64,000 bases of DNA, taken from Patescibacteria group bacterium (GTDB lineage Bacteria > Patescibacteriota > Patescibacteriia > Magasanikbacterales > GWA2-37-8). The notes beneath the pieces are model-generated. The model saw nothing but the letters and a program-made list of their open reading frames with translations, was not told the origin of the DNA and ran no database searches. The DNA is taken from contig SCQK01000013.1 in the NCBI GenBank assembly GCA_004321885.1, positions 96,001 through 160,000 of the forward strand, in the 5' to 3' direction. This document shows, one piece after another, positions 1 to 64,000 of the stretch (its first letter is position 1; each line of letters begins with the position of its first letter). Position numbers and translations under genes: made by a program.

Positions 1-2
1 TT

Positions 3-197
3 GTGTCCGCTAAAACCGTAAAGAATCATTGGTATTATGGCTGGGGAATCAAGGTGTGGTTTTGGCCCAAGATGTGGATTTACAATGTTTCCGGTTTTGA
101 CGCGATTGAAATAAAACTGAAAAATGGTAAAACGTACAGAATAGGCACGGATGAACCTGAAAAATTGGAGCAGACAATTTTTAATTCGATTAAATAA
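3..197 (+). CDS. C-terminal fragment of a small PH-domain-like protein (partial at window edge)
   Basis: ORF runs in from the window edge; GWGIKVWFWPKMW...YRIGT resembles bacterial PH-like membrane-associated domains; weak. Confidence 0.25.
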   Translation: MSAKTVKNHWYYGWGIKVWFWPKMWIYNVSGFDAIEIKLKNGKTYRIGTDEPEKLEQTIFNSIK

Positions 198-287
198 CGA
201 GGAACGGCAAAATTCTGAACTCAAGCGCCGCCACGCTCTCACTCCACAATACTTAGTTTCTATCTCTTGACAACATATAAACTAGAA

Positions 288-681
288 TGGGGGATAGTTT
301 ACATCTTCTTATCAACAATAACTCTATGGACGACATCGCCTTCTCTGCAATGACGGAAGAAAATGAGATTGACTTTTTGCGCGATAAATCATCTCACAAA
401 TACGTATACGACAAAACTACGATTGATTCGCTTAAAAAACGTTTCGCGTTAGAGGATAGTTAGAGAAATTCTTGTTGATCTGAATTTCCAAAAACAAGGT
501 TTCGGAAAGCAACTGATGAGTATGTGCGTAGAACACGCGAGGGATAAAGGGGCCGTGGGCGTGGTGACTGAAACGGCTTTTGACAATATTCCCATGCAAA
601 AACTGTGTGAAAAACTGGGTTTTAAAAAATGGGAAAATCCGCAATGGAAAAAAGGCATAACTTACAAATTAGTATTCAATT
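288..681 (+). pseudogene. GNAT-family N-acetyltransferase disrupted by a 1-nt frameshift (N-part 288-464, C-part 467-681)
   Basis: C-part VDLNFQKQGFGKQLM...CEKLGFKK is a GNAT motif A/B region; N-part MGDSLHLL... ends at TAG 462-464, and the frame resumes at +1. Confidence 0.4.
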
Positions 682-987
682 AGATATGCGTGAGTATGTT
701 TTCAGAAAATACATCCCTGAATATCGGGCTTTTTACGCTTCAGAAAAGAAAAAAATAATAAAAGCTCTTGGCCCAACAACAAAAATTGAACACGTAGGTT
801 CAACGGCTGTTCCCGATCTTGGGGGTAAAGGTATTCTTGATATTGTCGTGGGTATCCCAAAATCAAAAAAGAGGCGGTAAAAAAAGCCCTTGGCGATGGT
901 GAAAAATACAGAAAATATAAAGAGGAATTTATTCAAAATATTTTGAGGATGAAGCCAATCAACATATTCAACGGGAGTTCGAAATAA
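629..987 (+). pseudogene. GrpB/UPF0157-like nucleotidyltransferase remnant, frameshifted at an A-run near 860-880
   Basis: IEHVGSTAVPDLGGKGILDIVVGIP matches the GrpB core; the reading frame continues in +1 after aaaaaaga (KKEAVKKALGDGEKYRKYKEEF); too short for an intact GrpB. Confidence 0.4.
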
Positions 988-990
988 ATT

Positions 991-2071: not shown

Positions 2072-2123
2072 ATAAATTAATTACCCCTCCTTAATCCTCC
2101 CCTTAATAAGGGGGGGGAAATTG

Positions 2124-10447: not shown

Positions 10448-10477
10448 TGTCATTCCGGCCCCCGAGCCGGAATCCAG
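10448..10477. repeat. family-A hairpin repeat GTCATTCCGG-N7-CCGGAATCCAG
   Basis: other copies 11562-11588 (inside dnaX), 21342-21368, 21505-21530, 50745-50773, 55957-55991, 61391-61419 (inverted), 63974-64000 (partial). Confidence 0.85.
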
Positions 10478-10481: not shown

Positions 10482-11987
10482 ATGTCCACCCTCTACCGCC
10501 TCTACCGCCCGCAGAAGTTCGCCGACGTGACGGGCCAAGAGCACATCATCCAAACCATAACCAACGAGATATGCGCCGCTAAAACGGCGCATGCTTATCT
10601 ATTCTCGGGCCCGCGCGGCACCGGCAAGACCACCCTGGCCCGTCTGCTGGCTAAGGCCGTGAACTGCCAAAACCGCAAAGATGGGGAATCTGAACCGTGC
10701 AATGAGTGCCCATCTTGCGCGGAAATTTCCGCCAGCCGCAATATAGACGTAATGGAAATAGACGCGGCCTCGCATACGGGCGTGGAAAATGTGCGCGAAA
10801 ATATCATAGACAGCGCGCAATTTCAGCCCACCAAATCCAAATACAAAATTTTCATCATAGACGAGGTGCACATGCTTTCCACTCCGGCTTTCAACGCCCT
10901 GCTCAAAACCCTGGAAGAGCCGCCGGCGCACGTGATTTTCGTGCTGGCCACCACCGAACTGCAAAAACTGCCGGCTACCATTGTATCGCGCTGTCAACGT
11001 TTTACCTTCAAAAAAATCGGCTTTGACCAGATGATGAGCAAACTTTTGAAAATCTGCAAAGACCAGGACGTAAAGGTGGACAAAAAAGTGCTGGAGCGGG
11101 TGATAAACAAAAGCGACGGCTGTATGCGCGACGCTGAATCCCTGCTTGGTCAAATTTTAACGTTGAATCAAAAAAATATCGGGCCCGAAGACGCGGAAAT
11201 GATTTTGCCCACGTCCAATGCGCGACAGATTTTGAATTTCGTGGATGCAATTTTGAACCGCGACGTTAAAAGCGCCGTGGCTCTGATAAACGAACTGGTT
11301 TCCGACGGCGTGAATCTGGAGCAATTCGCCTATGACGCGCTGGAAATTTTGCGCCTGCTGATGATTTTGCAATACGACCCAACCAAGGAAATTTTGGATT
11401 ACAGCGACGAAGACGCCAAACTGATTAAAAAAATGACCAAACAGGCGCCGGCCGAGCAGATTATAAAATTAACGGACGCGCTGATGGCGCGCCGAGCGCA
11501 AATTAAATCCGCGCCTATTCCCCAGCTGCCCCTGGAGCTCTTCGCCGTGGAATTCTCAAACTGTCATTCCGGACTTGATACGGAATCCATCGCCGCCAAC
11601 TGTCATTCTGAGGCCCCGCTTAGCGGGGACGGAGAATCCCTCTCGCCATCTATCACGCAAAAAATCAAAACCACTCTGGACGAAATTAAAAACAAGTGGC
11701 ACGATATAACTGCCGGCCTCACCGAACAAAATCACTCACTCGGCTTTATCCTGAAAATGGGCGAACCGGCCAGAATGGAAGGAAATGAACTGTATTTGCG
11801 CGTGCCATTTTCCCTGCACAAAGAAAAAATTGAAGAGCAAAAAACCAAAAAATTGATAGAGGGCGCGATGACAGACGCCTTTGGGGAAAAAATTTGCCTG
11901 ATTTGCGAGGTGACGCAGGCGCAAAATGATGATGGCGAAATCACCCAGCTCGCGAGTGAATTTGGGGGTGAAGTTGTCTCACTCTAA
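10482..11987 (+). CDS. dnaX: DNA polymerase III subunit gamma/tau
   Basis: YRPQKFADVTGQEHI, AHAYLFSGPRGTGKTT, Zn module CNECPSC, box IFIIDEVHML; carries an in-frame repeat insertion at 11555-11613. Confidence 0.9.
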   Translation: MSTLYRLYRPQKFADVTGQEHIIQTITNEICAAKTAHAYLFSGPRGTGKTTLARLLAKAVNCQNRKDGESEPCNECPSCAEISASRNIDVMEIDAASHTGVENVRENIIDSAQFQPTKSKYKIFIIDEVHMLSTPAFNALLKTLEEPPAHVIFVLATTELQKLPATIVSRCQRFTFKKIGFDQMMSKLLKICKDQDVKVDKKVLERVINKSDGCMRDAESLLGQILTLNQKNIGPEDAEMILPTSNARQILNFVDAILNRDVKSAVALINELVSDGVNLEQFAYDALEILRLLMILQYDPTKEILDYSDEDAKLIKKMTKQAPAEQIIKLTDALMARRAQIKSAPIPQLPLELFAVEFSNCHSGLDTESIAANCHSEAPLSGDGESLSPSITQKIKTTLDEIKNKWHDITAGLTEQNHSLGFILKMGEPARMEGNELYLRVPFSLHKEKIEEQKTKKLIEGAMTDAFGEKICLICEVTQAQNDDGEITQLASEFGGEVVSL

Positions 11988-11997: not shown

Positions 11998-12831
11998 ATG
12001 AAAATAATTATAATATCTTTATTACTAATCCTTGCTCCGGTCGCAGTTTCGTCAAAAACTCTAGTCAACCTTAACGTGCCCTTTACTCCGGAAACACCGG
12101 ACAATGTTTGGACAGCGCCCTGGAAAGACGCCTGCGAAGAGGCCAGTATCGTGATGGTCAGCCAATATTATTTAGGCAAACAAAACGCGCTCATACCAAA
12201 AGCGGCCGCCAAGGCGCTGATGCAAAAATATTTTACGATAGAAAACAAAATTTTTGGCTGGAACGCCAACACCGACGCGGCGCATACGGCTAAACTCATA
12301 AACGAGCACTCAAAAATTTTTGCCGCGGAAATAAAAAACAATCCGACGTTGGCAGAAATTAAAGCCGAGGTACAGGCCGGCCGGCCGGTAATTGCCGCCT
12401 TAAACGCTCTTGCGTTGACAAAAATCAACGACCATTTGCGCTTCCGCCGCAACGGCTCGTATTATCACATGCTGGTCATAGTGGGCTATGACGATGAAAC
12501 GAACGAGTTTATCGTGAACGATAACGGCGATTACAGCGGACTTGACCATCGCTACAGTTATGATATTATAATGGACTCTTTGCGCGATTACAGCTACAAA
12601 ACGCACAAGGCGAACGGCCCGGCGCGGGCGTTATTTACTTATCGCAAAATGCTGGCCAAAACCGCGACCAGCAACCGAATTTATTGGATAGAAAAAAATG
12701 TGAAACAATACGTCACCCACCCGGCCGTATTCAAACAACGCGGTTGGAGATGGGCCAACGTGCAGGTGGTGGAAAAAAGTGTGTTGGATGGGTTGACCAG
12801 CGGCACGCCAATCGCGCCATTGTCATCCTGA
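11998..12831 (+). CDS. secreted papain-like (peptidase C39-like) domain protein
   Basis: signal peptide MKIIIISLLLILAPVAVSS; catalytic-Cys context WKDACEEASIVMVSQYY and His context HMLVIVGYDDETNEF. Confidence 0.55.
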   Translation: MKIIIISLLLILAPVAVSSKTLVNLNVPFTPETPDNVWTAPWKDACEEASIVMVSQYYLGKQNALIPKAAAKALMQKYFTIENKIFGWNANTDAAHTAKLINEHSKIFAAEIKNNPTLAEIKAEVQAGRPVIAALNALALTKINDHLRFRRNGSYYHMLVIVGYDDETNEFIVNDNGDYSGLDHRYSYDIIMDSLRDYSYKTHKANGPARALFTYRKMLAKTATSNRIYWIEKNVKQYVTHPAVFKQRGWRWANVQVVEKSVLDGLTSGTPIAPLSS

Positions 12832-12860
12832 ATTTATTTCAGGATCTCCAACCCGTAACC

Positions 12861-12933: not shown

Positions 12934-13644
12934 ATGAAGATCGTCATTGTAATTCCCACATACAACGAAAGGAAGAACATCTCCAAACTAACCGAGAAAA
13001 TTTTTGCTTTGCGAATTGACGGGCTGGAAATGATCGTAGTGGACGACGGCTCGCCCGACGGAACCGGCGACAAGGTAAAAAAATTGGGCGAACGATTTCC
13101 GGTGACCCTGCTGGCGCGCGAAAAAAAACGCGGACTCGGTTCGGCTTACCTCGCCGGATTCAAGAAAGCCCTGGAAATGGGGGCTGATTTTATTTTTGAA
13201 ATGGACGCGGATTTGTCGCACGACCCCGACGACGTGCCAAGATTACTGGAGCCGTGCCTGGACGGCGCCGATTTGGCCATCGGCTCGCGCCGGGTGGCCG
13301 GCGGAAAGATTATCGGATGGGGCTGGGCGCGCAAATTCATGAGCGCCGGAGCCATGCGGCTGTCGCGCCTGATACTTCAATTAAAAAACAAAGACGTTAC
13401 CTCCGGCTTCAGATGTTGGCGCCGCGAAGCGCTTTTAAGAATTGACTTGGACAAAATCAAAAGCAACGGCTACGCTTTTCAGGAAGAAATACTCTGGCGC
13501 GCCCAGCAGGCGGGCCTGAAAATTGCCGAGGTACCGGTAATTTTTGTTGACCGCGAAGAAGGCAAATCCAAACTGGGCTGGAGAGAGGTATTGGAATTTT
13601 TTAAAGTAATGCTGTCATTGCGAGCGAAGCGAAGCAATCCCTAA
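12934..13644 (+). CDS. GT2 family dolichyl/polyprenyl-phosphate mannose (or glucose) synthase-like glycosyltransferase
   Basis: VVIPTYNE, VVDDGSPDGT, DAD motif, Dpm1-like fold; the C-terminal 11 aa are read from a family-B repeat. Confidence 0.8.
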   Translation: MKIVIVIPTYNERKNISKLTEKIFALRIDGLEMIVVDDGSPDGTGDKVKKLGERFPVTLLAREKKRGLGSAYLAGFKKALEMGADFIFEMDADLSHDPDDVPRLLEPCLDGADLAIGSRRVAGGKIIGWGWARKFMSAGAMRLSRLILQLKNKDVTSGFRCWRREALLRIDLDKIKSNGYAFQEEILWRAQQAGLKIAEVPVIFVDREEGKSKLGWREVLEFFKVMLSLRAKRSNP

Positions 13645-13693
13645 CACAAATGATTGGGATTGCTTCGGCGCTATGCGCCGCCTCGCAATGACA
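13613..13693. repeat. family-B nested palindrome GTCATTGCGAGCG..AAGCAATCCC..GGGATTGCTTCG..CTCGCAATGAC
   Basis: other copies 13859-13940, 19249-19298 (half), 21854-21937, 63753-63846. Confidence 0.85.
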
Positions 13694-14648
13694 ATAACAA
13701 CTCGTCAAAGGTTTTCACCCTCATTAATTTCATTTTTAATTCCTTCACTCCGGGAACGCCTTTGAAATAATAGGCGAGGTGTTTGCGAAAAGTTACCATA
13801 CTTCCTTCGCCGTAGCGCTCTAAATGCAGTTGCGCATGGCGGAGAATGACGTTTAAAATGTCATCGCGAGGAGACTGCAGGCCGACGAAGCAATCCCCTG
13901 CTTTATCAGATGGGGTTGCTTCGCTACGCTCGCAATGACAACGGAAAATCCACGGGTTGCCAAGCGCCCCGCGGCCTATCATCACGCCGTCCGCGCCAGT
14001 AATTTCCAAACACCGGCGGATGTCTTCGGACGAATTTATATCACCATTGGCCAGCGCCGGAATCTTTAACAACTTTTTCACGCGGCCAATCATTTCCCAG
14101 TTCGCTTTGCCGCTGTAGCCCTGCGTCTTGGTGCGGCCGTGAATCGTGAGTAAATCAGCGCCGGCCGCTTCCAATTTAGGCGCGAACTCCAAAATTTCTT
14201 CCTCTCTCCCCCACCCCAGCCGCGTCTTCACGGAAATCGGCGCGCCCAAATCCGCTTTTTTTAATTCTGCCACGATTTTTACCGCTCGCTCGTGGTCTTT
14301 CATCAAAGCCGCGCCCGAATTGACTTTGCCGGTTAATTTCGGCACCGGACAGCCCATATTAATGTCAATCCCGTCGGGTTTAAATTTTTCAACTAAAATC
14401 TCCGCGGCCTGACGCACTTGTTTGGGCTCGGCGCCGAACAATTGCAAAACAATCGGCCTTTCAATCGCGTCAAACTCGCACATTTTCAAGGTCTTGGCGT
14501 TGCCGCGGCAAATCGCCTCGGCGCTCACCATTTCCCGAAAAATCACGAAATCCGGGCCTGAAACCTCGCGGCAAACGCGACAAAACGGCCCGTCGGTCAT
14601 ATCGGCCATGGGCGCGAGCGCGACAATAGATCGTTCATCCATCCACAT
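13671..14648 (-). CDS. dusB: tRNA-dihydrouridine synthase (start moved to the internal Met; ORF-track start 14876)
   Basis: LAPMADMTDGPFCRVCRE, GIDINMGCP, TIHGRT, MIGRGALGNPWIF; contains an in-frame repeat at 13859-13940, and the C-terminus runs into a repeat at 13613-13693. Confidence 0.8.
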   Translation of the reverse strand: MWMDERSIVALAPMADMTDGPFCRVCREVSGPDFVIFREMVSAEAICRGNAKTLKMCEFDAIERPIVLQLFGAEPKQVRQAAEILVEKFKPDGIDINMGCPVPKLTGKVNSGAALMKDHERAVKIVAELKKADLGAPISVKTRLGWGREEEILEFAPKLEAAGADLLTIHGRTKTQGYSGKANWEMIGRVKKLLKIPALANGDINSSEDIRRCLEITGADGVMIGRGALGNPWIFRCHCERSEATPSDKAGDCFVGLQSPRDDILNVILRHAQLHLERYGEGSMVTFRKHLAYYFKGVPGVKELKMKLMRVKTFDELLLSLRGGA

Positions 14649-16061: not shown

Positions 16062-16697
16062 ATGCGAACTTCCCTTCCATTTACCCATCGCCAGCTCTCC
16101 CCTTCGCCGCCTTCGCGGCATGAGAAAGGGGAGAGGGGGACGACTGCAATATTGCCAGCTATATTGCTCATCGCGTTTGGCATTGCGGCGAGATTTTTGC
16201 CCCATCCGGCGAACTTTACTCCCATCGGCGCCATTGCTATTTTTGGCGGACTGTATCTGCCCAAAAAACTTTCTGTTTGGCTGCCTCTCTCGGCCATGCT
16301 TATCAGCGATATTTTTATCGGCTTTTATTCATTGCCGATTATGGCCAGCGTGTACGTCGGCTTTATGTTCGCCAATCTGCTATCCTTGACAGCGCGGGGC
16401 AAACTCGCATATACAAAAACCGCCTTTGGGCGGTTTGGGACTATTGCCGGCGCCACGGCGCTAAGTTCAGCCATTTTTTACCTCTTGACAAACGCGGCGG
16501 TTTGGGCATTCGGCTCTATGTATCCGCACAATTTCACCGGCCTTTTGGAATCATACTACCTGGCTCTCCCCTTCTTCCGAAACAGCCTGGCGGGCGACGT
16601 TTTCTTCACTTTCGTTTTAGTAGGCGGGATGGAGTTGCTAAAACATACGTTAAGGGATTCCTCCGCTCTCCGCCGGCTGGCGAATCGATCGGAATGA
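16062..16697 (+). CDS. polytopic membrane protein (ECF-transporter S-component-like); the N-terminal 28 aa are read through a family-D repeat
   Basis: 5-6 predicted TM helices; possible alternative TTG start near 16150. Confidence 0.5.
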   Translation: MRTSLPFTHRQLSPSPPSRHEKGERGTTAILPAILLIAFGIAARFLPHPANFTPIGAIAIFGGLYLPKKLSVWLPLSAMLISDIFIGFYSLPIMASVYVGFMFANLLSLTARGKLAYTKTAFGRFGTIAGATALSSAIFYLLTNAAVWAFGSMYPHNFTGLLESYYLALPFFRNSLAGDVFFTFVLVGGMELLKHTLRDSSALRRLANRSE

Positions 16698-16699
16698 CA

Positions 16700-19230: not shown

Positions 19231-21333
19231 TTATGTATGGGATTGCTTCCCGCCAGAGGCGGGCAGGCGCTCTTCGCTCGCAATGACATTTTTTTTATGC
19301 CCCAAAAACATCCAATTGCCATACTCATTGAACCAGCGGAAAACAATGCGGATATTGATGCGGGTAACGGTAATGGCCGTAAACATGGAGACCAACGTGC
19401 CGATGGCCAACGTGACGGCAAAGCCCTGCACAAACCCGGTGCCAAACCATATAAGGAATCCGCAACTGATAAGGGTGGTGATATTGCTGTCGCGAATGGA
19501 CGGCCAGGCGCGCGCGAACGACTCCTCGGCCGCCGACAGCAAACTGCGGCCATTGCGTAATTCTTCTTTCATGCGCTCAAACACCAGCACATTGGCGTCT
19601 ACGGCCATACCGATAGACAAAATAAAGCCGGCAATGCCCGACAAGGTTAAAGTTACTCCGATAATCTTAAAGATGGCCAAACTTAAAAGGGCGTAGACGA
19701 GCAGAGAAACATTGGCCAACAAGCCGGGAAAGCGATAATAGCCAATCATGAAAAGCAAAACTAAAATCAAACCAACAATGCCGGCGAAAAAACTTTTACG
19801 CAGATACTCGGAACCCAAAGTGGCGTCCACTTTCTGCTGGCTGATGAGGTCTACGGCCACGGGCAAAGCGCCGGCGTTGAGGCGCTGGGACAAAAGCCGC
19901 GCTTCGCCGAGCGTGAAACTGCCCGAGATGACGGCCGAGCCGCTGGTGATGGCTTCGTTCACGCGCGGAATGCTAATGGGCTCACCGTCCAAAAATATGG
20001 CCACGTTCTTGCCCACATTGCGCGTGGTGATATCGCCGAACAATTTTGTGCCTTCTTCGTTGAATTGCAGATTGACCTGCACTTGTCCGGACTGATTATC
20101 CTGGGTTACCTCGGCGCGCTTGAGCTGCTTGCCCGACAAGCCCGAGCTTTTCCATTCCTCGGCCGGCGGCACGACATCGGAAGCCTGTTTAGTCTTCACG
20201 TACACGCGGGCCACCTCATATTCCCTGGACGGCTTTTCATCTTTTTTGTAAATAATGTGAAAACCGAATTTTGTTTCCACCGCATTGGACACAGCGCCCT
20301 TGGGCATCGCGCCCGCCGCCTCTTCAAACTCCGGCACCATTTGGCCCTTCTTAAACCAGCCCAGCTCTTCGCCGCGCACTTCCAATTTTTTATCCGGAGA
20401 ATATTGCTGTACCAACTGGGCAAAATTGGCGGGCGACGCCTGGGCTTTTATTTCACCGGCTCTTTGGCGGGCCTGGTCTTTGTTCAATTTGCTTTCACAC
20501 CCTTCGGCGCCGGCATAACAAACCAACAAGTGCGACGCGTTTATCATTTTTTCGCCGTCGCGGCCGGAGAGCCGTTTTACCACGTTCAAGCCGTCAAAAC
20601 TTTTCACCAGGGTTTTGCCCGCCTGGCCGTCTTTGGCTTTCTCGGCCCAAGCAAAAATTTCCGGATAAATTTCTTTGGTAATAAATCCCAGATTGCCGCC
20701 CTTGTCTTTGCTGGCCTGGTCTTCGGAATATTGGGCCGCGATTTTGCCGAAATCGGCCCCGGGTTTTAGGGCCGCGGTTAGAGCTGTTTTGGCTTTTTTA
20801 TCGGCCGCGCTGTTAAAAACGTCCAGGTCTTTTTTTTCTTGGGGTGTCAAATCGCGGGCCGGGTCGTGATTTTCTTCCTTAAATTCCAGTATCGGAGTTT
20901 CGCCAATCATTTTGATGGCCTGATTGACATCGGTAACGCCGGGCAATTCCACAATCACGCGATAATCGCCGCCGACCTTGGTGGTTTGCACCAATGGCTC
21001 GGCCACGCCCAGGCCCCCGCGCACGCGCCGCTCTATCACGTCGCGCACGCCTTCCACGGCGTCGCCGCGGTCGCCTTCGGGAATGGTTTCTGTTTTGGCC
21101 TGATAAACCAAATGCGCGCCGCCCTGCAAATCCAGGCCCAGATTAAAGCCCTTATCCGGCAAGCGGGGCAAACCGATGTTGGCCGCGTTGTTGAGCCAGT
21201 CTATGCCGCGGTTGGCGAACGCCGGCAAAACAATAAGCAGGGTGGCAATGGCCAAAGCGACCACGCCGGCCGCGTGCCATTTTAATTTTTTCGCCGACGA
21301 AACCTTGTTGGAAATTTTTACTGCCATAAACAC
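19231..21333 (-). CDS. secD: protein translocase subunit SecD with inserted parvulin-type PPIase domain(s)
   Basis: SecD motifs LGLDLQGG and GGLGVAEPLVQ plus the TM core; inserted segment ASHLLV...GEELGWFKKGQMVPEFEEAA...FGFHIIYK matches PpiC/parvulin; a second partial parvulin-like segment GADFGKIAAQYSED...GGNLGF. Confidence 0.85.
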   Translation of the reverse strand: MFMAVKISNKVSSAKKLKWHAAGVVALAIATLLIVLPAFANRGIDWLNNAANIGLPRLPDKGFNLGLDLQGGAHLVYQAKTETIPEGDRGDAVEGVRDVIERRVRGGLGVAEPLVQTTKVGGDYRVIVELPGVTDVNQAIKMIGETPILEFKEENHDPARDLTPQEKKDLDVFNSAADKKAKTALTAALKPGADFGKIAAQYSEDQASKDKGGNLGFITKEIYPEIFAWAEKAKDGQAGKTLVKSFDGLNVVKRLSGRDGEKMINASHLLVCYAGAEGCESKLNKDQARQRAGEIKAQASPANFAQLVQQYSPDKKLEVRGEELGWFKKGQMVPEFEEAAGAMPKGAVSNAVETKFGFHIIYKKDEKPSREYEVARVYVKTKQASDVVPPAEEWKSSGLSGKQLKRAEVTQDNQSGQVQVNLQFNEEGTKLFGDITTRNVGKNVAIFLDGEPISIPRVNEAITSGSAVISGSFTLGEARLLSQRLNAGALPVAVDLISQQKVDATLGSEYLRKSFFAGIVGLILVLLFMIGYYRFPGLLANVSLLVYALLSLAIFKIIGVTLTLSGIAGFILSIGMAVDANVLVFERMKEELRNGRSLLSAAEESFARAWPSIRDSNITTLISCGFLIWFGTGFVQGFAVTLAIGTLVSMFTAITVTRINIRIVFRWFNEYGNWMFLGHKKNVIASEERLPASGGKQSHT

Positions 21334-21377
21334 AATTATTATGTCATTCCGGGCTTGACCCGGAATCTATTTCCGTG

Positions 21378-21450: not shown

Positions 21451-21537
21451 GTCCGCATCTCGGCTATGATTTTACCCCTTTTTGCCTTTTTTGGCAAGAA
21501 CCATTGTCATTCCTGCGCAAGTAGGAATCCACAATCA

Positions 21538-21840: not shown

Positions 21841-21967
21841 ATAATCTAATCGCTGTCATTGCGAGCGAGCCACAAGCGAGCGCGGCAATCCCTTCCGTGT
21901 TTGGGATTGCTTCGCCCCTTCGGGGCTCGCAATGACATTTAAGTTTCAAAATAATTTTTACCTGTTT

Positions 21968-22257: not shown

Positions 22258-22505
22258 CCGTCAGAGAGTGCTCGAAGGCCCTACTCCGGAAGACGTCCCG
22301 GAGCCAGGAGGAGAAGCCGTCCCACCATTCCATGCCGCCGGCCACAGTCCGGCCGCGAGGTGCGCGCGCTCCGCTTCCAAAGGGGCATCTCGAAAACTGT
22401 GCCGGGGTGGTTTGGCGTCTTTGCGCCAGATTGCACCCCACATGGACAGCGTCCTCCTACGGGGAGGACTATGGTTGCTTAGCGCCATCAACCCTCTCTG
22501 ACGGC
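22258..22505 (+). other. GC-rich roughly 250-nt element closed by a perfect 12-bp inverted repeat (GCCGTCAGAGAG ... CTCTCTGACGGC) followed by a T-run; candidate structured ncRNA or MITE
   Basis: about 65% GC against an AT-richer background; terminal stem plus T9; internal hairpin CTCCGG-AAGACGTC-CCGGAG. Confidence 0.3.
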
Positions 22506-22760: not shown

Positions 22761-22846
22761 GTCATCCTGAACTTGTTTCAGGATCCCCACTGTCCAATTC
22801 GCCGACTCGCTCGATCGGAGATGCCGAAACAAGTTCGGCATGACAG
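22761..22846. repeat. family-C composite hairpins GTCATCCTGAACTTGTTTCAGGAT ... ATGCCGAAACAAGTTCGGCATGAC
   Basis: related copies 23161-23203 (ATGCTGAAATAAATTCAGCAT) and 46141-46157 (CCTGAAACAAGTTCAGG). Confidence 0.7.
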
Positions 22847-22865: not shown

Positions 22866-23159
22866 TCACTCCCATTCGTCGCTCAAGTCTTTCAAAGTGG
22901 GATTAAGTCCTTTTACTAAATTTATTTTCCACTGACGATGCCAATTTTTGATTTGTTTCTCTCTGTTAATTGCGTCACGTGGATCCAAAAAAACTTCGTA
23001 ATAAACTAACTTTTTCAGATTATACTGTTTTGTAAATCCCTCATTGATTCCATTTTTATGTTCTTCAAGCCGACGTTCTAGATTGTTCGTTATACCTACA
23101 TATAAAACCGTGTTGATGATGTTTGTTAAAATATACACATAAAATGTTTTCCCCTCCAT
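22866..23159 (-). CDS. GIY-YIG nuclease superfamily protein (UPF0213-like)
   Basis: YVYIL...LYVGITNNLERRLEEH matches the GIY-YIG motif. Confidence 0.85.
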   Translation of the reverse strand: MEGKTFYVYILTNIINTVLYVGITNNLERRLEEHKNGINEGFTKQYNLKKLVYYEVFLDPRDAINREKQIKNWHRQWKINLVKGLNPTLKDLSDEWE

Positions 23160-23201
23160 ACGATTTGCGATTGGAGATGCTGAAATAAATTCAGCATGAC
23201 A

Positions 23202-29453: not shown

Positions 29454-29479
29454 AAAAAATCCCCGACTTAGCCGGGAAT
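29454..29479 (-). terminator. hairpin plus U-run downstream of tRNA-Trp (family-E CCCGACTTAGCCGGG hairpin)
   Basis: minus-strand RNA TCCCG-GCTAAGT-CGGGA-TTTTTT. Confidence 0.45.
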
Positions 29480-30022: not shown

Positions 30023-30051
30023 TAAAAACAGTCCCGACTTAGTCGGGACTG
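30023..30051 (-). terminator. intrinsic terminator after tRNA-Thr(GGU) (CAGTCCCGA-CTAAG-TCGGGACTG-TTTTT)
   Basis: perfect 9-bp stem plus a U-run immediately 3' of the tRNA. Confidence 0.5.
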
Positions 30052-30061
30052 TTTTGGCGCG

Positions 30062-30323: not shown

Positions 30324-30328
30324 ATTTT

Positions 30329-32382: not shown

Positions 32383-32393
32383 AACAAAGTACT

Positions 32394-33194: not shown

Positions 33195-34579
33195 ACGAGT
33201 AATTTCAAAATTTCTTCTTTTGATTTCGGCCCGATTACCGCCAACCGCATTCGCTTCCAATCAAAAAATCTTCGTGCCGCGCCACGCACCTGCCCGGCCG
33301 TAACGCGCTCTATTTTTTCCAACTGCTGTTCCGGCGTCTCTATTTTATCAGCGAACCAGTGCTGGCGCGCGAACCACTCGGCCACGGCGCTGGAATTTTC
33401 CATGGATAGCGCCATGCGGCCCGAAATGTTTGTTTTGGCGTCGTCTAATTCTTTTTTGCTGATGCCTTTATCCGCAATTTTTTTCAGTTCGCTTTTAATT
33501 ACCGAAAGCGCTTCGCCCAGCCGGTTGGAATCCAAACCAGCGTTAATGGTGATAACGCCGGTTTCGTTGTGGCTGACCCCGCCGGCGTGAATCATATAGG
33601 CCAATCCCCTTTTCTCGCGCACCTCCACGAACAAACGTGAACTCATGCCGGAGCCGAGCACGGTAAGCAATACCGCGTTCGCGTACCTGATAGGATCGTT
33701 GTAGGCGAAACCCGCGAACCCCATCACAACGTGCGACTGATCTATTTTTCTCTGTTCAACGCTAACCCGTTTTTCCAACGGCAATTCGCCCGCCGGCCAG
33801 CTGAATTTTATAAAATTTTCTTTGTTGAAATACCCCTCCTTCCCGCTCCCCTTTATAAGGGGAGGGAAACTATCGGCAGTTCCTCCCCCTTGATAAGGGG
33901 GAGGCTCGCCACCACACCAAATGCTTTGGTGTGGTGGCGAGGAGGGGGTATTCGCGAAATACTTCGCGGCCAACTTTTTTATTTTTTCCCGCGGCGCGTT
34001 GCCCGACACCGCCAGCGCCATATTCGCGGGCGTGTAAGCATTTTTGTAATACGCGAACAGCTCGTCCCGCGTAATATTTTTTACTGTCTCGGCCGTGCCG
34101 GCCACATCCCGCCCCAGTGGATTGCCGCCAAACACCGTGCGGTCAAAAACCAGCTCCACGGCCATGCTCGGATTATCTTCATACATCTTTATTTCTTCGG
34201 CAATCACTCCCCGCTCTTTGGTGATTTCTTTTTCGTCAAAAGTGGAATCAAAGAGCATGTCCGCCAAAATATCAAAAGCCAATTCCACCCGCCGGCCGTC
34301 TATTTTAATATAATAGCCGGTATAATCCTTGTAGGTAAAGGCGTTATAATCCGCGCCCACCGCGTCCAACTCGCGCGAAATATGCTGGGCCGTGGGACGT
34401 TTTTTTGTTCCTTTGAACATCAGATGCTCCACAAAGTGCGAAGCCCCGGAAATTTTCGCTGTCTCATAGCGCGAACCCACCGGCAATAAAACCATCACCG
34501 TGACGGCTTTGGTGCCGCCCGTCGGCGCCGTGATTAGCGACAAGCCATTTTTTAATTTTGATAGCCGATGCATAATCAC
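33191..34579 (-). CDS. M16 family zinc metallopeptidase (insulinase-like)
   Basis: HxxEH inverzincin motif HFVEHLMFKGT; two-domain M16 fold; carries a roughly 35-aa in-frame repeat insertion (33832-33952). Confidence 0.8.
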   Translation of the reverse strand: MIMHRLSKLKNGLSLITAPTGGTKAVTVMVLLPVGSRYETAKISGASHFVEHLMFKGTKKRPTAQHISRELDAVGADYNAFTYKDYTGYYIKIDGRRVELAFDILADMLFDSTFDEKEITKERGVIAEEIKMYEDNPSMAVELVFDRTVFGGNPLGRDVAGTAETVKNITRDELFAYYKNAYTPANMALAVSGNAPREKIKKLAAKYFANTPSSPPHQSIWCGGEPPPYQGGGTADSFPPLIKGSGKEGYFNKENFIKFSWPAGELPLEKRVSVEQRKIDQSHVVMGFAGFAYNDPIRYANAVLLTVLGSGMSSRLFVEVREKRGLAYMIHAGGVSHNETGVITINAGLDSNRLGEALSVIKSELKKIADKGISKKELDDAKTNISGRMALSMENSSAVAEWFARQHWFADKIETPEQQLEKIERVTAGQVRGAARRFFDWKRMRLAVIGPKSKEEILKLLV

Positions 34580-39679: not shown

Positions 39680-39740
39680 ACTATTTACCCTTACCTCCCT
39701 CCCCCTTAAAAAAGGAGAGGACAGGAGGGGGTATTCAATT

Positions 39741-40637: not shown

Positions 40638-40732
40638 ATAAACATTTTACCAAAAAAACACAGAACTGGCAATGACAGCGACATTGCTACCCCTCCCAAC
40701 CCTCCCCTTATCAAAGGGAGGGATTATAGGGA

Positions 40733-46114: not shown

Positions 46115-46152
46115 AATAATTACCCCTCCCTCACCCTCCTCCTGAAACAAGT

Positions 46153-46632
46153 TCAGGACAGGCTCTTAAAAAGGGGCGGGCTGGATGGGGTCACCCGCGC
46201 TTCGCCGCTGTATTGGGGGGCGATGTAGCGGCCGGGTTTAGCTCTTTTGAAACGCGCCAGCGCCTGGGCCGGAGTCCAGCCGGGTTCCAGAGAGATTACC
46301 GGGATTTTCAGGGCGTAGGCCATGGTGTTGCCGAACGTAGCGGCCAGACGACTGGCGGTAAAACTCTCGGCGCCGCTCACCACCCCGATGCCTTTAATTT
46401 TTTTCAGCGGCAATTTTTGTTTTTTCAGGAATTTGTCAAATGCTTCCACGATGGATGTCCTATTACCACTAGATTCCCCCGTACTTAGTCGGGGGAATGA
46501 CAATCGGGCTCCACAGGCCTTCGGCACTATGGAGCCAGCGATAATTCCACAGGCCTTCGGCACTATGGAGCCAGCGATAATTCCGGAAACGCAAATAGCC
46601 CCTTCTTGGTTATTATCTACAATAAGAAACAT
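46153..46632 (-). CDS. TsaB/YeaZ-like (Kae1-associated) N-terminal domain protein, short, with a tandem-repeat-encoded duplication
   Basis: KKIKGIGVVSGAESFTASRLAATFGNTMAYALKIPVI resembles TsaB; GIIAGSIVPKAC x2 is encoded by a 39-bp tandem repeat. Confidence 0.45.
   Translation of the reverse strand: MFLIVDNNQEGAICVSGIIAGSIVPKACGIIAGSIVPKACGARLSFPRLSTGESSGNRTSIVEAFDKFLKKQKLPLKKIKGIGVVSGAESFTASRLAATFGNTMAYALKIPVISLEPGWTPAQALARFKRAKPGRYIAPQYSGEARVTPSSPPLFKSLS
46505..46582. repeat. 39-bp tandem direct repeat x2 (GGCTCCACAGGCCTTCGGCACTATGGAGCCAGCGATAATTCC), family F, preceded by a family-E hairpin at 46475-46500
   Basis: related single copy 61421-61463 (GGGCTCCACAG-CCCCGACTGAGTCGGGG-ACTATGGAGCC) and a partial copy at the window end 63983-64000. 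Confidence 0.75.
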
Positions 46633-46713
46633 AAAAAAAACCCACCCCCTGCCACCACACCAAAATCTTTGGTGTGGTGGCCTGCCCCTCCCCTAATAGG
46701 GGAGGGTAGCTCG

Positions 46714-47322: not shown

Positions 47323-47434
47323 TCTCCCCCTCTCCTTTTAGAAGGGGAGGGACAGGGAGGGGTAAATTATCAATTGCGCTATTCTTTAATACATAGTATA
47401 ATAATTACACTTCAAAAAGTAAAGATGCGCCAAT

Positions 47435-50704: not shown

Positions 50705-50837
50705 ATCCCGCCAAAGGCGGGCAAGAGCGCAAATCGACCTATACTGTCATTCCGGCTTCCGAGCCGGAATCCAGTTCTTTTTTGCACCTCGGCAGGTAAT
50801 TAAGCCCTTTCGGACACCTGCTGTCTATGGTGACAAT

Positions 50838-50866
50838 AATATACAGGAAGCATAAAAAAATGTCAA
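50838..50866 (-). promoter_or_regulatory. sigma70-like promoter TTGACA-17-TATATT for the rplJL operon
   Basis: consensus -35, 17-nt spacer, near-consensus -10. Confidence 0.4.
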
Positions 50867-51554: not shown

Positions 51555-51732
51555 AATACCCCCCTCCTCGCCTCCCCCCTAAGAGGGTGGAGAGAGTTAG
51601 ATGGACCATTATGAGGAAGATTTTGACGGGAATGCTTTATTTGTTCCGGCCTGTTCGCTTTCCAGCGGCTCGGCGTGCGATAGGCTGTCTTGCCTTTTTG
51701 CGCCCGGTTGGATGAATAATTTTTCACACCTA

Positions 51733-55946: not shown

Positions 55947-56009
55947 ATTTTTTAACTGTCATCCCGGTCGCCGCAGACAACCGGAATCCAGTGTTAAGAA
56001 TAATTTTTT

Positions 56010-58099: not shown

Positions 58100-58171
58100 A
58101 ATACCCCCTCCTCTATCCTCCCCCTAAAAGGGGGAGGAAGTGTTAAAGCCCACCCCCCTTAGATGGAAATT

Positions 58172-59512: not shown

Positions 59513-59569
59513 ATATTCTGGATTCCCGCTCCCCGCCTTCGCGGGGACAAGCTTCGTGGGAATGATAAT

Positions 59570-61006: not shown

Positions 61007-61286
61007 TAAAAACTCCGGGGACGACCAGCTCGTTGTCTGATACTTTCGGCATCTGGGTCAGTAATTCTTTTTTCGTGGCGCAATCACGCGGCGCGTCTTC
61101 GCGAGTCACGTCGGACAAACCGGTAACCTGTGAGGTCGGCTCAATATTTTCCGTATCCACTTCGTTCAAAATCTTCATGTAATCCAAAACCGCCGAAATC
61201 GTTTCGGCGTGGCGTTTTTCTTCCGCCGGAGTGAGTTCTATCCGCGCCAGTTTAGCGATATTTTTTACTTCTTCAATGGTGAGCAT
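60993..61286 (-). CDS. gatC: Asp-tRNA(Asn)/Glu-tRNA(Gln) amidotransferase subunit C
   Basis: MLTIEEVKNIAKLARIELT...; overlaps gatA by 14 nt. Confidence 0.8.
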   Translation of the reverse strand: MLTIEEVKNIAKLARIELTPAEEKRHAETISAVLDYMKILNEVDTENIEPTSQVTGLSDVTREDAPRDCATKKELLTQMPKVSDNELVVPGVFNGEE

Positions 61287-61472
61287 AGTGTTTTTTTGCA
61301 ACAGTAATATTTCTACAATTTTTCAAACATTGTGGAAAATATTAAGCCGGACAGAGATTCCTCGGCTTCGCCTCGGAATAACAATCTACTGGATTCCGGC
61401 TCGTGGGCCGGAATGACAGCTGGGCTCCACAGCCCCGACTGAGTCGGGGACTATGGAGCCAGCAATTGACAA

Positions 61473-62846
61473 TTACCAGCCAAACGTTTTTGCCACATCA
61501 TCAAGCGTTTCTCGCCGGCGGATAATTTTTATTTCCCCGTTCTGCGCCAAAAGTTTGACCGGCGAAGAAAGCAGGCAATGGTGCGAAGCCAAGGCGTCTT
61601 GATACGCGCCGGTGTCAAAAATCGCCAGATACAAGCTGTCGTCTTTTTCCAAATCATCCAAACGCGGCAAAGAAATGTAGCTCCCCTGCCCAGTGTATTT
61701 ATCGTCGGCGTCGCAAGTCATGCCGGCCAGCCAGCTCTGGGTTTTATTTTTGCTGTTCAGATAATTCACCGGCACCACATGCCACTTTTGGTGCAAGGCC
61801 CAGGTGTCAAGCAAATCGTTCATGAAACTGCCATCCACCACGTACCACTTGCGATTCTTGCCCTGCTGGATGTCTTTTTCGCACAATACTTTGTAAATCG
61901 TCACCTGGGCCGGCGACACCACATAGCGCCCCCACTCGCAAACGATATTGGGCGGCGCGATTTGATTTTTCTCACAAAACTCCTTCAAAAATTTTATCAG
62001 GTTTTCTATCAAGCTGTCTATACTGTAGCGGAATTTGCGGTCGTAGGGAATGGGCATGCCGCCGCCGATGTCAAGCGTGTCCAGCGAGGGATTTATCTGC
62101 TTTAATTTCAAATACACTTCCATGGCTTTGCGCACGGGCCGCAAAATATCCTTAAGCAATTCTATCTGCGAGCCGATATGGTAATGCAAGATTTTTAGGT
62201 TCTTAATTTTCCCCAAACGGCTGATTTCTTTTTCCGTCAATCCATACCTGTCCACCTTGTGATTCCAGTGCGAACTCACCTTCACGTCCACGGACAAGCG
62301 GATGCCCACATTGCCGCGATACGATTTCAGATACGCCAGCTCGTTCAAATCCTCTATTATCGGAATGATGTCCAAATTTTTCGTTTTCAGCTCGCCGATG
62401 AGGTCTAAATATTCTTTGGTCTTTGGCCCGTTGCAAATCACTTTAATTTTATTGTTCAAACTGCCGGTGCTCCACATTTTTTTCACCAGCTTCAGCTCGT
62501 TGGCCGAGCCGGTCTCCAGATTGGCGCCTTCGGTTACCAGTGGCAAAATAAATTCTTTGTTCTGGTTCACCTTCATCGGGTAGTGATAAAAAAACTTGGC
62601 CGGATAGCGGTAAATCTTGACGTAGGAATTAAACAAATCAATCAGCTCATCCACGCGCTCTTCCAAAATGAACGGAAAAACTATCTCCAGAGGCGTGCCA
62701 TATTTTTTCACGATGTTCATCAGGTCATACTGGTAATTGCCTTCTTTGGCCACCAGATGATTAGCGCTGTTAATATCAAAATACTGGGTGTTGAAATTCT
62801 TCACTCCCAGCTTCCAATATTTGCGCAGGTTTTGCAGTTTTGGCAT
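61473..62846 (-). CDS. fold-type III PLP decarboxylase, biosynthetic arginine decarboxylase (SpeA)-like (start moved to the internal Met; ORF-track start 62999)
   Basis: YPMKVNQN, EAGSANELKLV, GGGMPIPYD, CEWGRYVVSPA blocks. Confidence 0.65.
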   Translation of the reverse strand: MPKLQNLRKYWKLGVKNFNTQYFDINSANHLVAKEGNYQYDLMNIVKKYGTPLEIVFPFILEERVDELIDLFNSYVKIYRYPAKFFYHYPMKVNQNKEFILPLVTEGANLETGSANELKLVKKMWSTGSLNNKIKVICNGPKTKEYLDLIGELKTKNLDIIPIIEDLNELAYLKSYRGNVGIRLSVDVKVSSHWNHKVDRYGLTEKEISRLGKIKNLKILHYHIGSQIELLKDILRPVRKAMEVYLKLKQINPSLDTLDIGGGMPIPYDRKFRYSIDSLIENLIKFLKEFCEKNQIAPPNIVCEWGRYVVSPAQVTIYKVLCEKDIQQGKNRKWYVVDGSFMNDLLDTWALHQKWHVVPVNYLNSKNKTQSWLAGMTCDADDKYTGQGSYISLPRLDDLEKDDSLYLAIFDTGAYQDALASHHCLLSSPVKLLAQNGEIKIIRRRETLDDVAKTFGW

Positions 62847-63008
62847 ATTGGTAGCCCGTACGGGAATCGCACCCGTCTTTTCGCCGTGAGAGGGCGATGT
62901 CCTAGCTGATAGACGAACGGGCCATCGTTCGCGCCCGTTCCGAAACGAACGCGCCATTTTTAGCGAAAATATTGTACCAACAAAAAACGTAAAAGTCAAT
63001 TTGAATGG

Positions 63009-63758
63009 CTATTTTTTCATCAATTTCTCAATCACCTCCACGTCATTATTTTTCGCGAACGCTCCGTAAATCGCTTTCAATTCCTTTTGATTAAACCCGT
63101 AACCCAATTCAAGCGCTTGCTTGGCCGAGCCGTACGCTTTATCCAAATCATTCTTGTTTAGATAAATCAACGCCAGCATCCAGTGCGATTCGGCAATGCC
63201 CGGCGCCAAGTCAATGGCTTCCTGCGCCAGCTTGATCGCCTCGTCATTCTTGCCTTGCAACATCTTGGCGCGCGCCAAACCCCAGATAATTGTTTGCCGG
63301 CGCGGACTGTAGGGCAGAATTTTTTTATACTGCTCCACGGCCGCTTCCAAGTAACCGGGGTTTAGCCAAAAATCATAACCGTCTTGATAGGCCCTGGCCA
63401 AAATCGCGCCGGCGCGCGCGTCGGCCGGATATTTTTCCAAATAAAATTTCATGGCGCCCTCTCCCACCGAATACATATCCGCGGCCAATTTTCGGTAATC
63501 GGAAAAAGCAAAATCCGGGTGCTGGGCCAGCCATACCAAGAAAAATTGTCCGAATTCAAAAGAGATGTCGTAGGCGTACGGATTTGGTTTTATTTTTATC
63601 GCCTCTTTGTGCAGTTTGATGGCCGAGCCGAAGTCGGTCATCGCTTTTCTGATGGCCAGGGCCGAAATATGGTCGGCCTTGGCCGGAATAATGGAAAAGC
63701 GGTTGATGAGAATGAAGGCGGCGAAAAAAATAAGCAAGATGGCGAGGAGGCGTGTCAT
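63009..63758 (-). CDS. TPR-repeat membrane protein (start moved past a repeat-derived N-terminal extension)
   Basis: N-terminal TM LLAILLIFFAAFILI; TPR-like helices. Confidence 0.6.
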   Translation of the reverse strand: MTRLLAILLIFFAAFILINRFSIIPAKADHISALAIRKAMTDFGSAIKLHKEAIKIKPNPYAYDISFEFGQFFLVWLAQHPDFAFSDYRKLAADMYSVGEGAMKFYLEKYPADARAGAILARAYQDGYDFWLNPGYLEAAVEQYKKILPYSPRRQTIIWGLARAKMLQGKNDEAIKLAQEAIDLAPGIAESHWMLALIYLNKNDLDKAYGSAKQALELGYGFNQKELKAIYGAFAKNNDVEVIEKLMKK

Positions 63759-64000
63759 TGCGAGAAGCCCCGACGTAACGTCGGGGCGACGCGGCAATCT
63801 CTCATTTGCCTGGGATTGCTTCGGCCTTTCACGCCTCGCAATGACATCCACCCCGGCCAAAAGATAGAAAAAAAATAAATACGATGACTCGTTTTCAAAA
63901 ACAAACAAATTTTGAACCAGGTGCGCGGTAAAAAAAGCGCCCAGGCCAATGGCTAAAATCCAATCACGATTATCTGGATTCCGAGCCCGAAGGGCTCCAT

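Follow-up and report, generated by a model that had tools for sequence, protein, structure and literature searches.

Dispersed hairpin repeats in a Magasanikbacteria genome segment: a tagged class with a predicted Ssn-family nuclease as partner, and a second class that may be new

Introduction

What kind of element are the short hairpin repeats scattered over a 64,000-nt stretch of the genome of a Patescibacteria group bacterium (Magasanikbacterales; assembly GCA_004321885.1, contig SCQK01000013.1, positions 96,001 to 160,000 of the forward strand; the whole stretch is here called the window), and how did many of them come to lie in frame within essential genes? The window holds about 50 such repeats among genes that are mainly on the minus strand and, in a Pfam scan of about 60 open reading frames (ORFs), of ordinary housekeeping content. 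Its RNA features are six tRNAs, one group I intron and an L10 leader; Rfam recognised only tRNAs, the intron and the leader, and no Rfam family matched any of the window repeats. An earlier note, made from the letters of the DNA, had sorted the repeats into hairpin families A to F and described them as an active or recently active population of mobile elements resembling Rickettsia palindromic elements (RPEs), repetitive extragenic palindromes (REPs) and miniature transposable elements with inverted repeats (MITEs). All six families were found at or near the numbers given there: family A with eight copies and family B with five loci were counted correctly, while family C has five copies rather than three and family E six rather than four. 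The repeats are thus real, although to say that they saturate the window is too strong, as they occupy an estimated 3% of its bases and about half of the intergenic spacers of at least 20 nt.

Here we show that the window probably contains two unrelated classes of dispersed hairpins, one being a tagged REP with an Ssn-type nuclease as its partner and the other family D, together with some hairpins of terminator type. About half of the repeats belong to a known class, the CGTC-tagged REP or Ssn-related motif (SRM).

Tagged hairpins of families A, B and C

Listed separately in the earlier note, families A, B and C turned out to be stem variants of one tagged superfamily, to which some of the family-E hairpins also belong. 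They share a template consisting of an unpaired (T)GTC, a stem starting with the pairs A-T and T-A, a loop or an inner hairpin, the closing stem and an unpaired CC(A). A search for GTC, an AT-stem of at least 5 bp and a following C, controlled by 200 dinucleotide shuffles, identified 20 perfect tagged units in the window compared to 1.20 +/- 1.10 in the shuffles (maximum 5), all 20 of them visibly genuine, and about six further tagged units are degenerate. When the 5' trinucleotide was exchanged, GTC gave 20 matches and any other at most 11; when the 3' base was exchanged, C, which the main search required, gave 20 and the other bases 0-4. The AT start was likewise required by the search, yet 11 clear units from a search without this requirement all begin with AT. 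The tag is TGTC in 19 of the 20 units and CGTC in one, position -3 is an A in 14 of them, and the 3' C is followed by C (14/20) or T (6/20) and then by C (13/20) or A (7/20). The units measure 24-47 nt, are found either alone or paired in inverted dimers whose tags point outward, and show no strand bias (11 plus, 9 minus).

Family A (8-bp stem, 4-6 nt loop) has eight true copies, at 10449, 11563, 16656-16698, 21343, 21506, 50746, 55958 and 61392, and its motif GTCATTCCGG searched with one mismatch gave 12 matches against 4.3 expected, of which eight were the true hairpin units and four chance. The five loci of family B are three inverted dimers and two singles, making eight units, and GTCATTGCGAGCG occurs five times where 0.09 is expected; this family is off-consensus, with a 5-bp outer stem and a long inner hairpin in units of up to 47 nt. 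Family C (8-bp stem, 5-nt loop) has copies at 12822, 22761, 22820 and 23176 and a degenerate one at 46139. When folded as single-stranded DNA (ssDNA), all tested representatives of every family in the window were more stable than their own shuffles (z = -2.9 to -9.7), and GTC and CC remained unpaired in the folds of families A and C.

Tagged hairpins are about five times as dense here as in related genomes, with 20 units in the window compared to a mean of 4.4 per 64 kb (96 observed versus about 40 expected). Two independent Logan contigs (L081 and L102; SRR8426592) match 8.5 kb of the window, with its repeats, at 100% identity, so the repeats are not artefacts of one assembly. Both contigs end exactly at hairpins, at window positions 46668 and 61421, indicating that the repeats fragment short-read assemblies. 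As a separate observation, the L10 leader (RF00557, 53.6 bits; 50671-50848, minus strand) carries a family-A hairpin, which the covariance model treats as an insertion in a variable region.

A candidate nuclease and its cognate hairpin

The earlier note overlooked the gene at 22866-23159, the putative partner of the tagged hairpins. SsnA is a 94-aa single-domain GIY-YIG nuclease that binds and cuts the Neisseria repeat NTS, CGTCATTCCCGCGMAVGCGGGAATCYRG, only as ssDNA; the three bases 5' of the palindrome (GTC) govern cutting and the C 3' of it governs binding, and the ssn gene usually has its repeats on either side (Chenal et al., 2025; PMC11893778). In the 97-aa protein encoded by 22866-23159, the GIY-YIG domain PF01541 spans residues 6-80 and there is no second domain. 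When the N. gonorrhoeae orthologue of SsnA, rather than the Nm sequence, was used for comparison, an ungapped alignment of 85 aa showed 42% identity (E=1e-24), and a tblastn search of 7.3 Gb matched the 97-aa protein to the gonococcal orthologue at E=3e-15, the blastp cut-off of the original study being E < 1e-10. Residues Y9, Y20 and E67 align with the catalytic Y6, Y17 and E64 of Nm SsnA (PMC11893778). Structures of UPF0213 matched weakly (E=7e-4), no specific NCBIfam model matched, and sequence searches of NCBIfam and PDB did not separate Ssn from other small GIY-YIG proteins. The gonococcal ssnA locus (NZ_CP119142.1, 1880219-1883473; our L095) contains 11 NTS copies in 3.2 kb. It was drawn from a plasmid collection in which two complete N. 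gonorrhoeae chromosomes are filed as plasmids.

Homologues of the window gene at 60-70% identity number in the thousands. At all five loci examined, with homologues 60-67% identical in Buchananbacteria, a metagenome-assembled Nitrospirae genome and other metagenome contigs, the family-C hairpin GTCAT[GCT]CTGAAYTTRTTTCAG[CGA]ATC adjoins the gene. Five more distant homologues (locus L051, Azospirillum, Planktothrix, Spirosoma and Novosphingobium) are flanked by other (T/C)GTC hairpins, among them ATCCCCGC in both L051 and Azospirillum and ATTCTGAG..GAAGAAT in Planktothrix, which suggests that the A-like and B-like stems seen in the window belong with other Ssn clades as their cognate types. Judged by its sequence, the product of 22866-23159 is a predicted Ssn-family nuclease and the putative partner of the tagged hairpins. 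Families A to C are hence CGTC REPs or SRMs with an Ssn nuclease, a known kind of element to which a phylum is newly added.

Insertions into proteins

Orthologues of the repeat-bearing genes were taken from 80 related loci and aligned. The best species representatives in a tblastn search with SecA were Candidatus Magasanikbacteria at 73% identity; no strain-level relative was present in the databases, the next SecA being 76% identical, and searches with exact proteins yielded either nothing or only two Logan contigs identical to the window. The earlier note had named this alignment as the check on its own claim, and the claim stood: the repeat-encoded segments are absent from the orthologues, indicating insertion at loops and termini. 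In SecA loop 1, the peptide TPPLLGDGQATTPKSLVWWQGVG encoded by a 69-nt composite unit (25477-25545) is absent from 80 of 80 relatives, while in loop 2, where the nearest relatives read AFEA-EKNKT.., the window protein is about 20 residues longer owing to 23904-23990. Both inserts map to segments that B. subtilis SecA (1TF2) lacks, residues 157-218 corresponding to 158-165 and residues 684-715 to 622-623. The M16 peptidase carries a clean 32-aa insert in its inter-domain linker that its closest orthologues do not have, and alignment likewise identified a 20-aa insert in Dus and the units in the DnaX linker as insertions. C-terminal tails are repeat-encoded in SecD, GT2, Dus and DUF6580 according to the alignments, and that of tpiA could be read straight from the sequence. 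In total, well-supported genes carry at least 13 units in frame, either internally or at an end.

Both of these SecA loops were hit independently in about 18 of the 80 related genomes, by tagged hairpins in about 11 secA genes and by D-type ones in seven, and the relatives' own inserts include peptides such as VIPSERSDEES and DSRLRGND. Five of the six reading frames of the units contain no stop, while the remaining one ends in TGA, which one gene uses to terminate. These comparisons show the coding copies to be insertions rather than ancestral peptide. Their persistence in genes would reflect survivorship, only in-frame hits in tolerant loops, linkers, tails, untranslated regions (UTRs) and a leader having remained.

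That repeats supply the first or last codons of genes, as proposed earlier, applies to the last codons of SecD, tpiA, GT2, Dus and DUF6580; four cases of supposed first codons read as 5' UTR instead. The ORF of a TPR protein at 31444-32520 is over-extended, its true start being MLYII according to the alignment, and the translations suggest that the PEP-domain ORF (45056-46150) and the TPR ORF at 63009-63908 are over-extended too, with their repeats in the 5' UTR. In lgt, the repeat ends exactly at the ATG and is hence a 5'-UTR copy.

The description of the repeats as active or recently active is not supported, as the databases contain no strain-level relative. Copies are near-identical across phyla as well, so that their near-identity points to constraint rather than recency.

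An additional feature of SecD (19231-21333, minus strand) is a PPIC-type peptidyl-prolyl isomerase domain, which is inserted at residues ~253-364 and separates the N-terminal P1 segment from the P1 head.

Family D

Family D is built differently: its hairpin pairs a C-rich arm with a G-rich one across a loop, and 2-5 nt later a second G-rich arm, GGAGGGG, follows and then TA. Ten perfect pyrimidine/purine hairpins of this family were found where about 0.4 are expected, besides at least four imperfect ones. Nine D units end 0-17 nt 5' of a start codon, and the G-rich arm is the only Shine-Dalgarno-like sequence there. A 69-nt composite with a nested GCCACCACACCAAA hairpin occurs three times in the window. 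In a related genome (L018), a 76-nt inverted D dimer occupies both secA loops (3405-3480 and 4989-5064) with 97% identity, encoding one 26-aa peptide twice (KSLLEEGREMLVNA[ND]TSPTPPSRG[DE]L), and this near-identity of the dimers, together with the 93% identity between the SecA and intergenic copies of the 69-nt composite, indicates that family D moves as a discrete unit. Three-arm hairpins resembling family D were also found in other Magasanikbacteria.

Family D is without a (T/C)GTC tag, and the window yielded no partner gene for it. A metagenome scan for the nested GCCACCACACCAAA hairpin returned two unrelated short contigs and no partner gene. The ArsR-like gene at 46714-47322, flanked by D units, was considered as a partner and rejected, being simply a winged-helix regulator. 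We consider family D a separate class, which may be new.

Families E and F

Six copies of the family-E hairpin CCCCGAC-TNA-GTCGGGG and three copies of the longer hairpin of family F are present. Some family-E hairpins stand free behind two tRNA genes, with A/T runs on their flanks; others sit in the loops of tagged units, within family F or in a group I intron. A simple terminator scan left the free E hairpins uncalled, probably because the flanking A/T runs were absorbed into the stem, and the terminator form at 29461-29476 and 30025-30055 was recognised by eye only. Family E probably consists at least partly of ordinary terminator-type hairpins, for which a terminator role is plausible by eye. 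Slippage at hairpins is suggested by two in-frame 36-nt tandem duplications, one in the TsaB-like ORF (exact) and one in secA (83% identical).

A group I intron (RF00028, 61.7 bits; 30994-31300, minus strand, with the intron at 31051-31263) splits an apparent long-arm tRNA that ARAGORN did not call, and an E-like hairpin lies inside the intron. A second tRNA-like gene at 30060-30454 (minus strand; 5' half GCCGATGTAGCTCAGTTGG.., anticodon region CAT) is seemingly split by a group I-like intron at 26.9 bits, below the Rfam cut-off.

Table 1. Positions of hairpin units and of the ssn-like gene in the window (a point marks features given without a strand)
Feature	Position	Strand	Context
ssn-like gene, 97-aa single-domain GIY-YIG	22866..23159	-	PF01541 E=1.2e-19
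Family-C hairpin GTCATGCTGAATTTATTTCAGCATC	23176..23200	-	17 nt upstream of ssn, in the gene's orientation
Family-C hairpin	22820..22844	-	22 nt downstream of ssn, in the gene's orientation; inverted pair with 22761-22785(+)
Family-C hairpin GTCATCCTGAACTTGTTTCAGGATC	22761..22785	+	Same sequence as the copy flanking the ssn homologue in L093
Family-C hairpin	12822..12846	+	15 nt upstream of tRNA-Gln
Degenerate family-C hairpin GTCCTGAACTTGTTTCAGGAG	46139..46159	-	5' region of PEP-domain gene
Family-A hairpin	10449..10474	+	Begins 2 nt past the TrwB-like gene's TAG stop
Pair of tagged hairpins, 11563-11587 and 11602-11638	11563..11638	+	In frame, DnaX linker after domain III
Family-A unit with inner hairpin	16656..16698	-	Antisense reading gives last codons and TGA stop of DUF6580 gene
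Family-A hairpin	21343..21367	+	Between secD start and tRNA-Val
Family-A variant, stem ATTCCTGC	21506..21529	+	In unsupported 127-aa ORF
Family-A hairpin	50746..50771	+	Insertion within L10 leader (RF00557)
Degenerate family-A unit GTCATCCCGG..CCGGAATCC	55958..55989	+	Intergenic
Tandem pair of tagged hairpins	61356..61417	-	Degenerate GTTATTCCGAGG.. unit and perfect family-A unit 61392-61417
Degenerate NTS-like unit ATCATTCCCAC..GCGGGAATCCAG	59518..59566	-	Intergenic
Tagged hairpin with E-type stem	46472..46501	-	In frame, TsaB-like ORF; sole unit fitting the published SRM pattern
Tagged hairpin, 3' part	63974..64000	-	Cut by window end
Family-B inverted dimer, tags outward	13614..13692	.	Left unit ends GT2 gene (..SLRAKRSNP, stop), right unit ends convergent dus (..SLRGGA, stop)
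Family-B single	13887..13939	-	In frame in dus; 20-aa insert CHCERSEATPSDKAGDCFVG at barrel/helical domain junction
Family-B single	19241..19287	-	Gives last 17 codons of secD; tail NVIASEERLPASGGKQSHT, stop
Family-B inverted dimer	21855..21936	.	Intergenic
Family-B inverted dimer	63754..63845	.	TPR gene 5' region; ATG in ..GCAATGAC is the likely start (MTRLLAIL..)
Family-D three-arm hairpin	2079..2120	-	Second arm GGAGGGG 12 nt upstream of ATG, gene 1655-2071
Isolated pyrimidine/purine hairpin TCCTCCTACGGGGAGGA	22452..22468	.	Intergenic
Family-D unit and 36-nt tandem duplicate (23919-23990)	23904..23990	-	In frame, SecA loop 2 (..ASLSRDMAETSTASLPLDKGETKEGVKN..)
69-nt composite, D hairpin and nested GCCACCACACCAAA hairpin	25477..25545	-	In frame, SecA loop 1
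Family-D unit	32386..32437	+	Last ~12 codons and stop of tpiA (..LPLPAPPLIKGREK, stop); Shine-Dalgarno-like GGGAGGG upstream of TPR gene
Two D units, 33828-33869(-) and 33882-33950(+, nested hairpin)	33828..33950	.	Together the 32-aa M16 insert
Family-D unit, imperfect stem	39695..39733	+	Between co-directional genes, upstream of start at 39679
Family-D unit	40687..40722	-	Upstream of holB-like gene 39741-40637
D-type G/C-rich arms flanking degenerate C hairpin	46121..46192	.	Junction of TsaB-like stop and PEP-domain start
69-nt composite D	46638..46706	-	Intergenic, 93% identical to SecA copy; ends 5 nt before TsaB-like ATG
Family-D unit, imperfect stem	47324..47364	+	Adjoins start of ArsR-like gene 46714-47322
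Family-D unit, imperfect	51556..51596	-	GAGGAGGGGGGTATT immediately 5' of amino-acid kinase ATG
Family-D unit	58100..58141	-	GGAGGGGGTATT immediately 5' of lgt ATG
Family-E hairpin	29461..29476	-	13 nt downstream of tRNA-Trp, then T-run; terminator-like by eye
Family-E perfect 14-bp palindrome	30025..30055	.	A/T runs flanking; terminator-like in both directions, by eye
Family-E-like hairpin	31140..31156	.	Within group I intron, probably intron stem
Family-F hairpin, family-E hairpin nested in loop	61422..61460	+	ssDNA fold
Two exact 36-nt tandem family-F units	46510..46581	-	In frame, TsaB-like ORF, GIIAGSIVPKAC twice

Other features of the window

The consecutive spacers 41771-41856 and 43315-43417, upstream of mreB and of a DUF4012 gene, contain AT-rich palindromes and the direct motifs CAAATGTCAAATTTTGACATTTG, AATGACCAAT and CATTGGACATTGG. 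These have no relation to the hairpin families and might act as operator-like sites. An N6/N4 DNA methylase gene with an adjoining 225-aa ORF of no assigned family (36311-37908, minus strand) lies in the lowest-GC stretch of the window (GC 0.448) and may represent a restriction-modification island. The plus strand encodes, at 7901-10447, a coupling ATPase of 848 aa that is TrwB/VirD4-like. No long ORF is present at positions 1-732, where broken frames resembling pieces of an acetyltransferase-type gene may represent a pseudogene.

Discussion

By analogy with SsnA, the tagged hairpin would form only in single-stranded DNA, such as replication forks and incoming transforming DNA, where the nuclease would bind the stem together with the following C and nick a few nucleotides upstream of the GTC. 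New copies could then arise when a nick initiated by Ssn is processed by copy repair or template switching, which we consider the likeliest driver; to our knowledge, no strand-transfer chemistry is known for Ssn or other GIY-YIG nucleases. Copies have entered genes, and selection would have retained only those that preserve the frame in surface loops, inter-domain linkers and C-terminal tails or that lie in 5' UTRs and a riboswitch-like leader. Family D would spread as a discrete unit, including its 69-nt composite, and in its intergenic copies the purine arm may serve as the Shine-Dalgarno sequence. We also considered a more speculative joint reading, in which family D is an undescribed mobile class that carries a ready-made Shine-Dalgarno sequence and, in Magasanikbacteria, spreads from one gene start to another and also, in frame, to the loops of proteins, and in which Ssn and its hairpins form a selfish unit that jumps between phyla and whose hairpins are actively seeded into the essential genes of a ~1 Mb genome. 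Taken as a whole, this joint reading is tentative and rather doubtful.

Several points weigh against the assignment of the tagged hairpins to an Ssn partner and against the mobility of family D. Only 46469-46502 matches the published SRM pattern HGTCWYN(0-2)YYVSBRHN(0-5)WNVSBRGN(0-2)RNCYNB, and 19 of the 20 units miss it because their stems are 1-2 bp too short or contain inner hairpins; the pattern was hand-built from 29 genomes (PMC11893778). The ssn gene is flanked by family C only, no partner for families A and B was seen in the window, and since recognition by SsnA depends on stem sequence, the nuclease of the window may not act on most of the units. Fifteen of the 20 tagged units lie inside 12.8 kb around ssn (p = 1.7e-7), an interval that was picked after seeing the data. 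Nine distinct family-C copies have a 100% paired stem with three compensated positions, a pairing figure that is inflated because the copies came from a search requiring a perfect outer stem. No nuclease activity, transposition event or presence/absence polymorphism was observed. Finally, family D lacks a tag and a partner gene and, given its location at start codons, could be primarily a functional expression signal.

This last possibility can be extended to all of the hairpins, which would then be primarily host signals, acting as intrinsic terminators, as stem-loops that stabilise mRNA or as Shine-Dalgarno modules. Local duplication together with convergent selection, rather than mobility, would have multiplied them, with the coding copies as rare accidents. 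It would account for the nine D units directly 5' of start codons with their purine arm as the sole Shine-Dalgarno-like sequence, for the E hairpins with flanking A/T runs after tRNA-Trp and an intron-bearing tRNA, and for the position of most intergenic copies between co-directional genes, and REPs are indeed known to act as RNA elements (PMC3733652). We nevertheless find it unlikely, as a terminator role does not explain why unpaired GTC/C tags are kept across differing stems, and as it fits poorly with at least 13 in-frame units in or at the ends of well-supported genes, with identical composite units at unrelated sites and with one hairpin flanking one nuclease gene family across phyla; the terminator scan, moreover, did not call the E hairpins. 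At the other extreme, the in-frame segments could be ancestral protein sequence or assembly artefacts, considering that the inserts fall in variable linkers, which are hard to align with certainty. This is scarcely credible when the closest orthologues are without the 32 aa of M16 and the ~20 aa each of Dus and SecA loops 1 and 2, when the inserted peptides are translations of DNA units also found intergenically, and when independent Logan contigs are 100% identical over repeat-bearing stretches.

Two classical mobile systems were also considered. Inverted dimers such as those of family B look like REPINs and some D units are followed by (G)TAG, as might be expected of GTAG REPs moved by a RAYT (Y1, IS200/IS605-type) encoded elsewhere in the genome. 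The 5' tag is however (T/C)GTC in 20 of 20 tagged units, the TAG of family D stands 3' of the hairpin and thus on the wrong side, no Y1 or other transposase domain was found among the ~60 ORFs scanned, and CGTC REPs are not RAYT-associated (PMC3733652), making this origin very improbable. The MITE-like nature proposed in the earlier note, meaning deletion derivatives of insertion sequences moved by a DDE transposase at terminal inverted repeats, is suggested by the perfect 12-13 nt inverted repeats TGTCATTGCGAG..CTCGCAATGACA at the ends of the family-B dimers. We regard it as more improbable still, because these repeats are simply two tagged units, singles of 24-47 nt are too short, the flanks of three dimers show no target-site duplication, and no transposase matched in the window (Pfam scan of ~60 ORFs, which covered all but the L10, L7/L12 and 733-1035 ORFs).

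If Ssn and its hairpins did behave as the selfish unit of the joint reading, Ssn would be the long-sought mobilising enzyme of the CGTC REPs, a large superfamily without a dedicated transposase since 2013, whose binding partner Ssn was found in 2025. One nuclease clade appears to keep one hairpin across phyla with compensated stem changes and other clades other hairpins, which amounts to a testable specificity code, and in SecA, as in other core proteins, such units have repeatedly entered the same permissive loops. A 97-aa enzyme and a 25-nt site would make a compact system for addressing Ssn-driven spread and for single-strand DNA tools. For annotation, the repeats explain many odd low-complexity peptides and over-extended ORFs in genomes of the candidate phyla radiation (CPR).

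Among known systems, the cyanobacterial small dispersed repeats that Elhai and colleagues reportedly described in 2008 are ~21-27 nt long, hairpin-like and nested in one another; on this description, their sequences differ from ours and they are not known to have a tag or partner. The GTAG REPs and REPINs with their RAYT resemble the window repeats in being short, tagged hairpins that also form inverted dimers and that flank their own partner gene, and differ in the tag and in an HUH Y1 transposase fold in place of GIY-YIG, no RAYT being present in the window. RPEs of the RPE-1 type are ~100-150 nt long and resemble the window repeats in their in-frame insertion into essential proteins of a reduced genome, unlike the tagged 25-47 nt hairpins seen here in their length. 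These longer palindromic insertions interrupt R. conorii genes and are expressed in vivo (cited in PMC3733652). In-frame gene insertions that orthologues lack are common to RPEs and the window, and sequence-level kinship, by description, runs via the CGTC class only. The CGTC-tagged REPs take in dRS3 of Neisseria as well as RPE-4 and RPE-6 of Rickettsia (PMC3733652), so that the likeness to RPEs drawn in the earlier note is literally apt for families A to C.

The CGTC REP superfamily has variants tagged with TGTC, stems whose first pairs are A-T and tails of CCA; it forms inverted dimers, some of its copies lie in frame within genes and encode 20-30 aa, also in replication genes, and it has "no dedicated transposase" (Di Nocera et al., 2013; PMC3733652). 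The window units agree in the TGTC/CGTC tag, the A-T first two pairs, stems of ~8 bp, loops of 4-5 nt, a CCA-like tail, the inverted dimers and the in-frame intragenic copies, including those in replication genes. They differ in the long, variable inner hairpins of family-B units (up to 47 nt) and in the adjacent Ssn-type gene, where the superfamily was described without a dedicated enzyme, and in five phyla, none of them CPR. Neither this study nor that of Ssn (PMC11893778), which covered RefSeq reference genomes and names no Candidatus taxa, mentions Patescibacteria or CPR, and our full-text literature search found no report tying palindromic, REP or MITE repeats or GIY-YIG nucleases to CPR genomes. 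Compared to the Ssn and NTS/SRM system, the window differs in its CPR/Patescibacteria host, in having at least three stem families around one ssn gene and in its many in-frame copies in housekeeping genes, a topic absent from PMC11893778. In common with that system, it has a ~95-aa single-domain GIY-YIG protein with catalytic Y, Y and E and 42% identity to the gonococcal orthologue, a gene flanked by its own hairpins, an unpaired GTC 5' and C 3' of the stem, and the GTCATTCC..GGAATCCAG arms shared by family A and NTS. In conclusion, the pairing of an ssn-type gene with its tagged hairpins now extends to a CPR bacterium.

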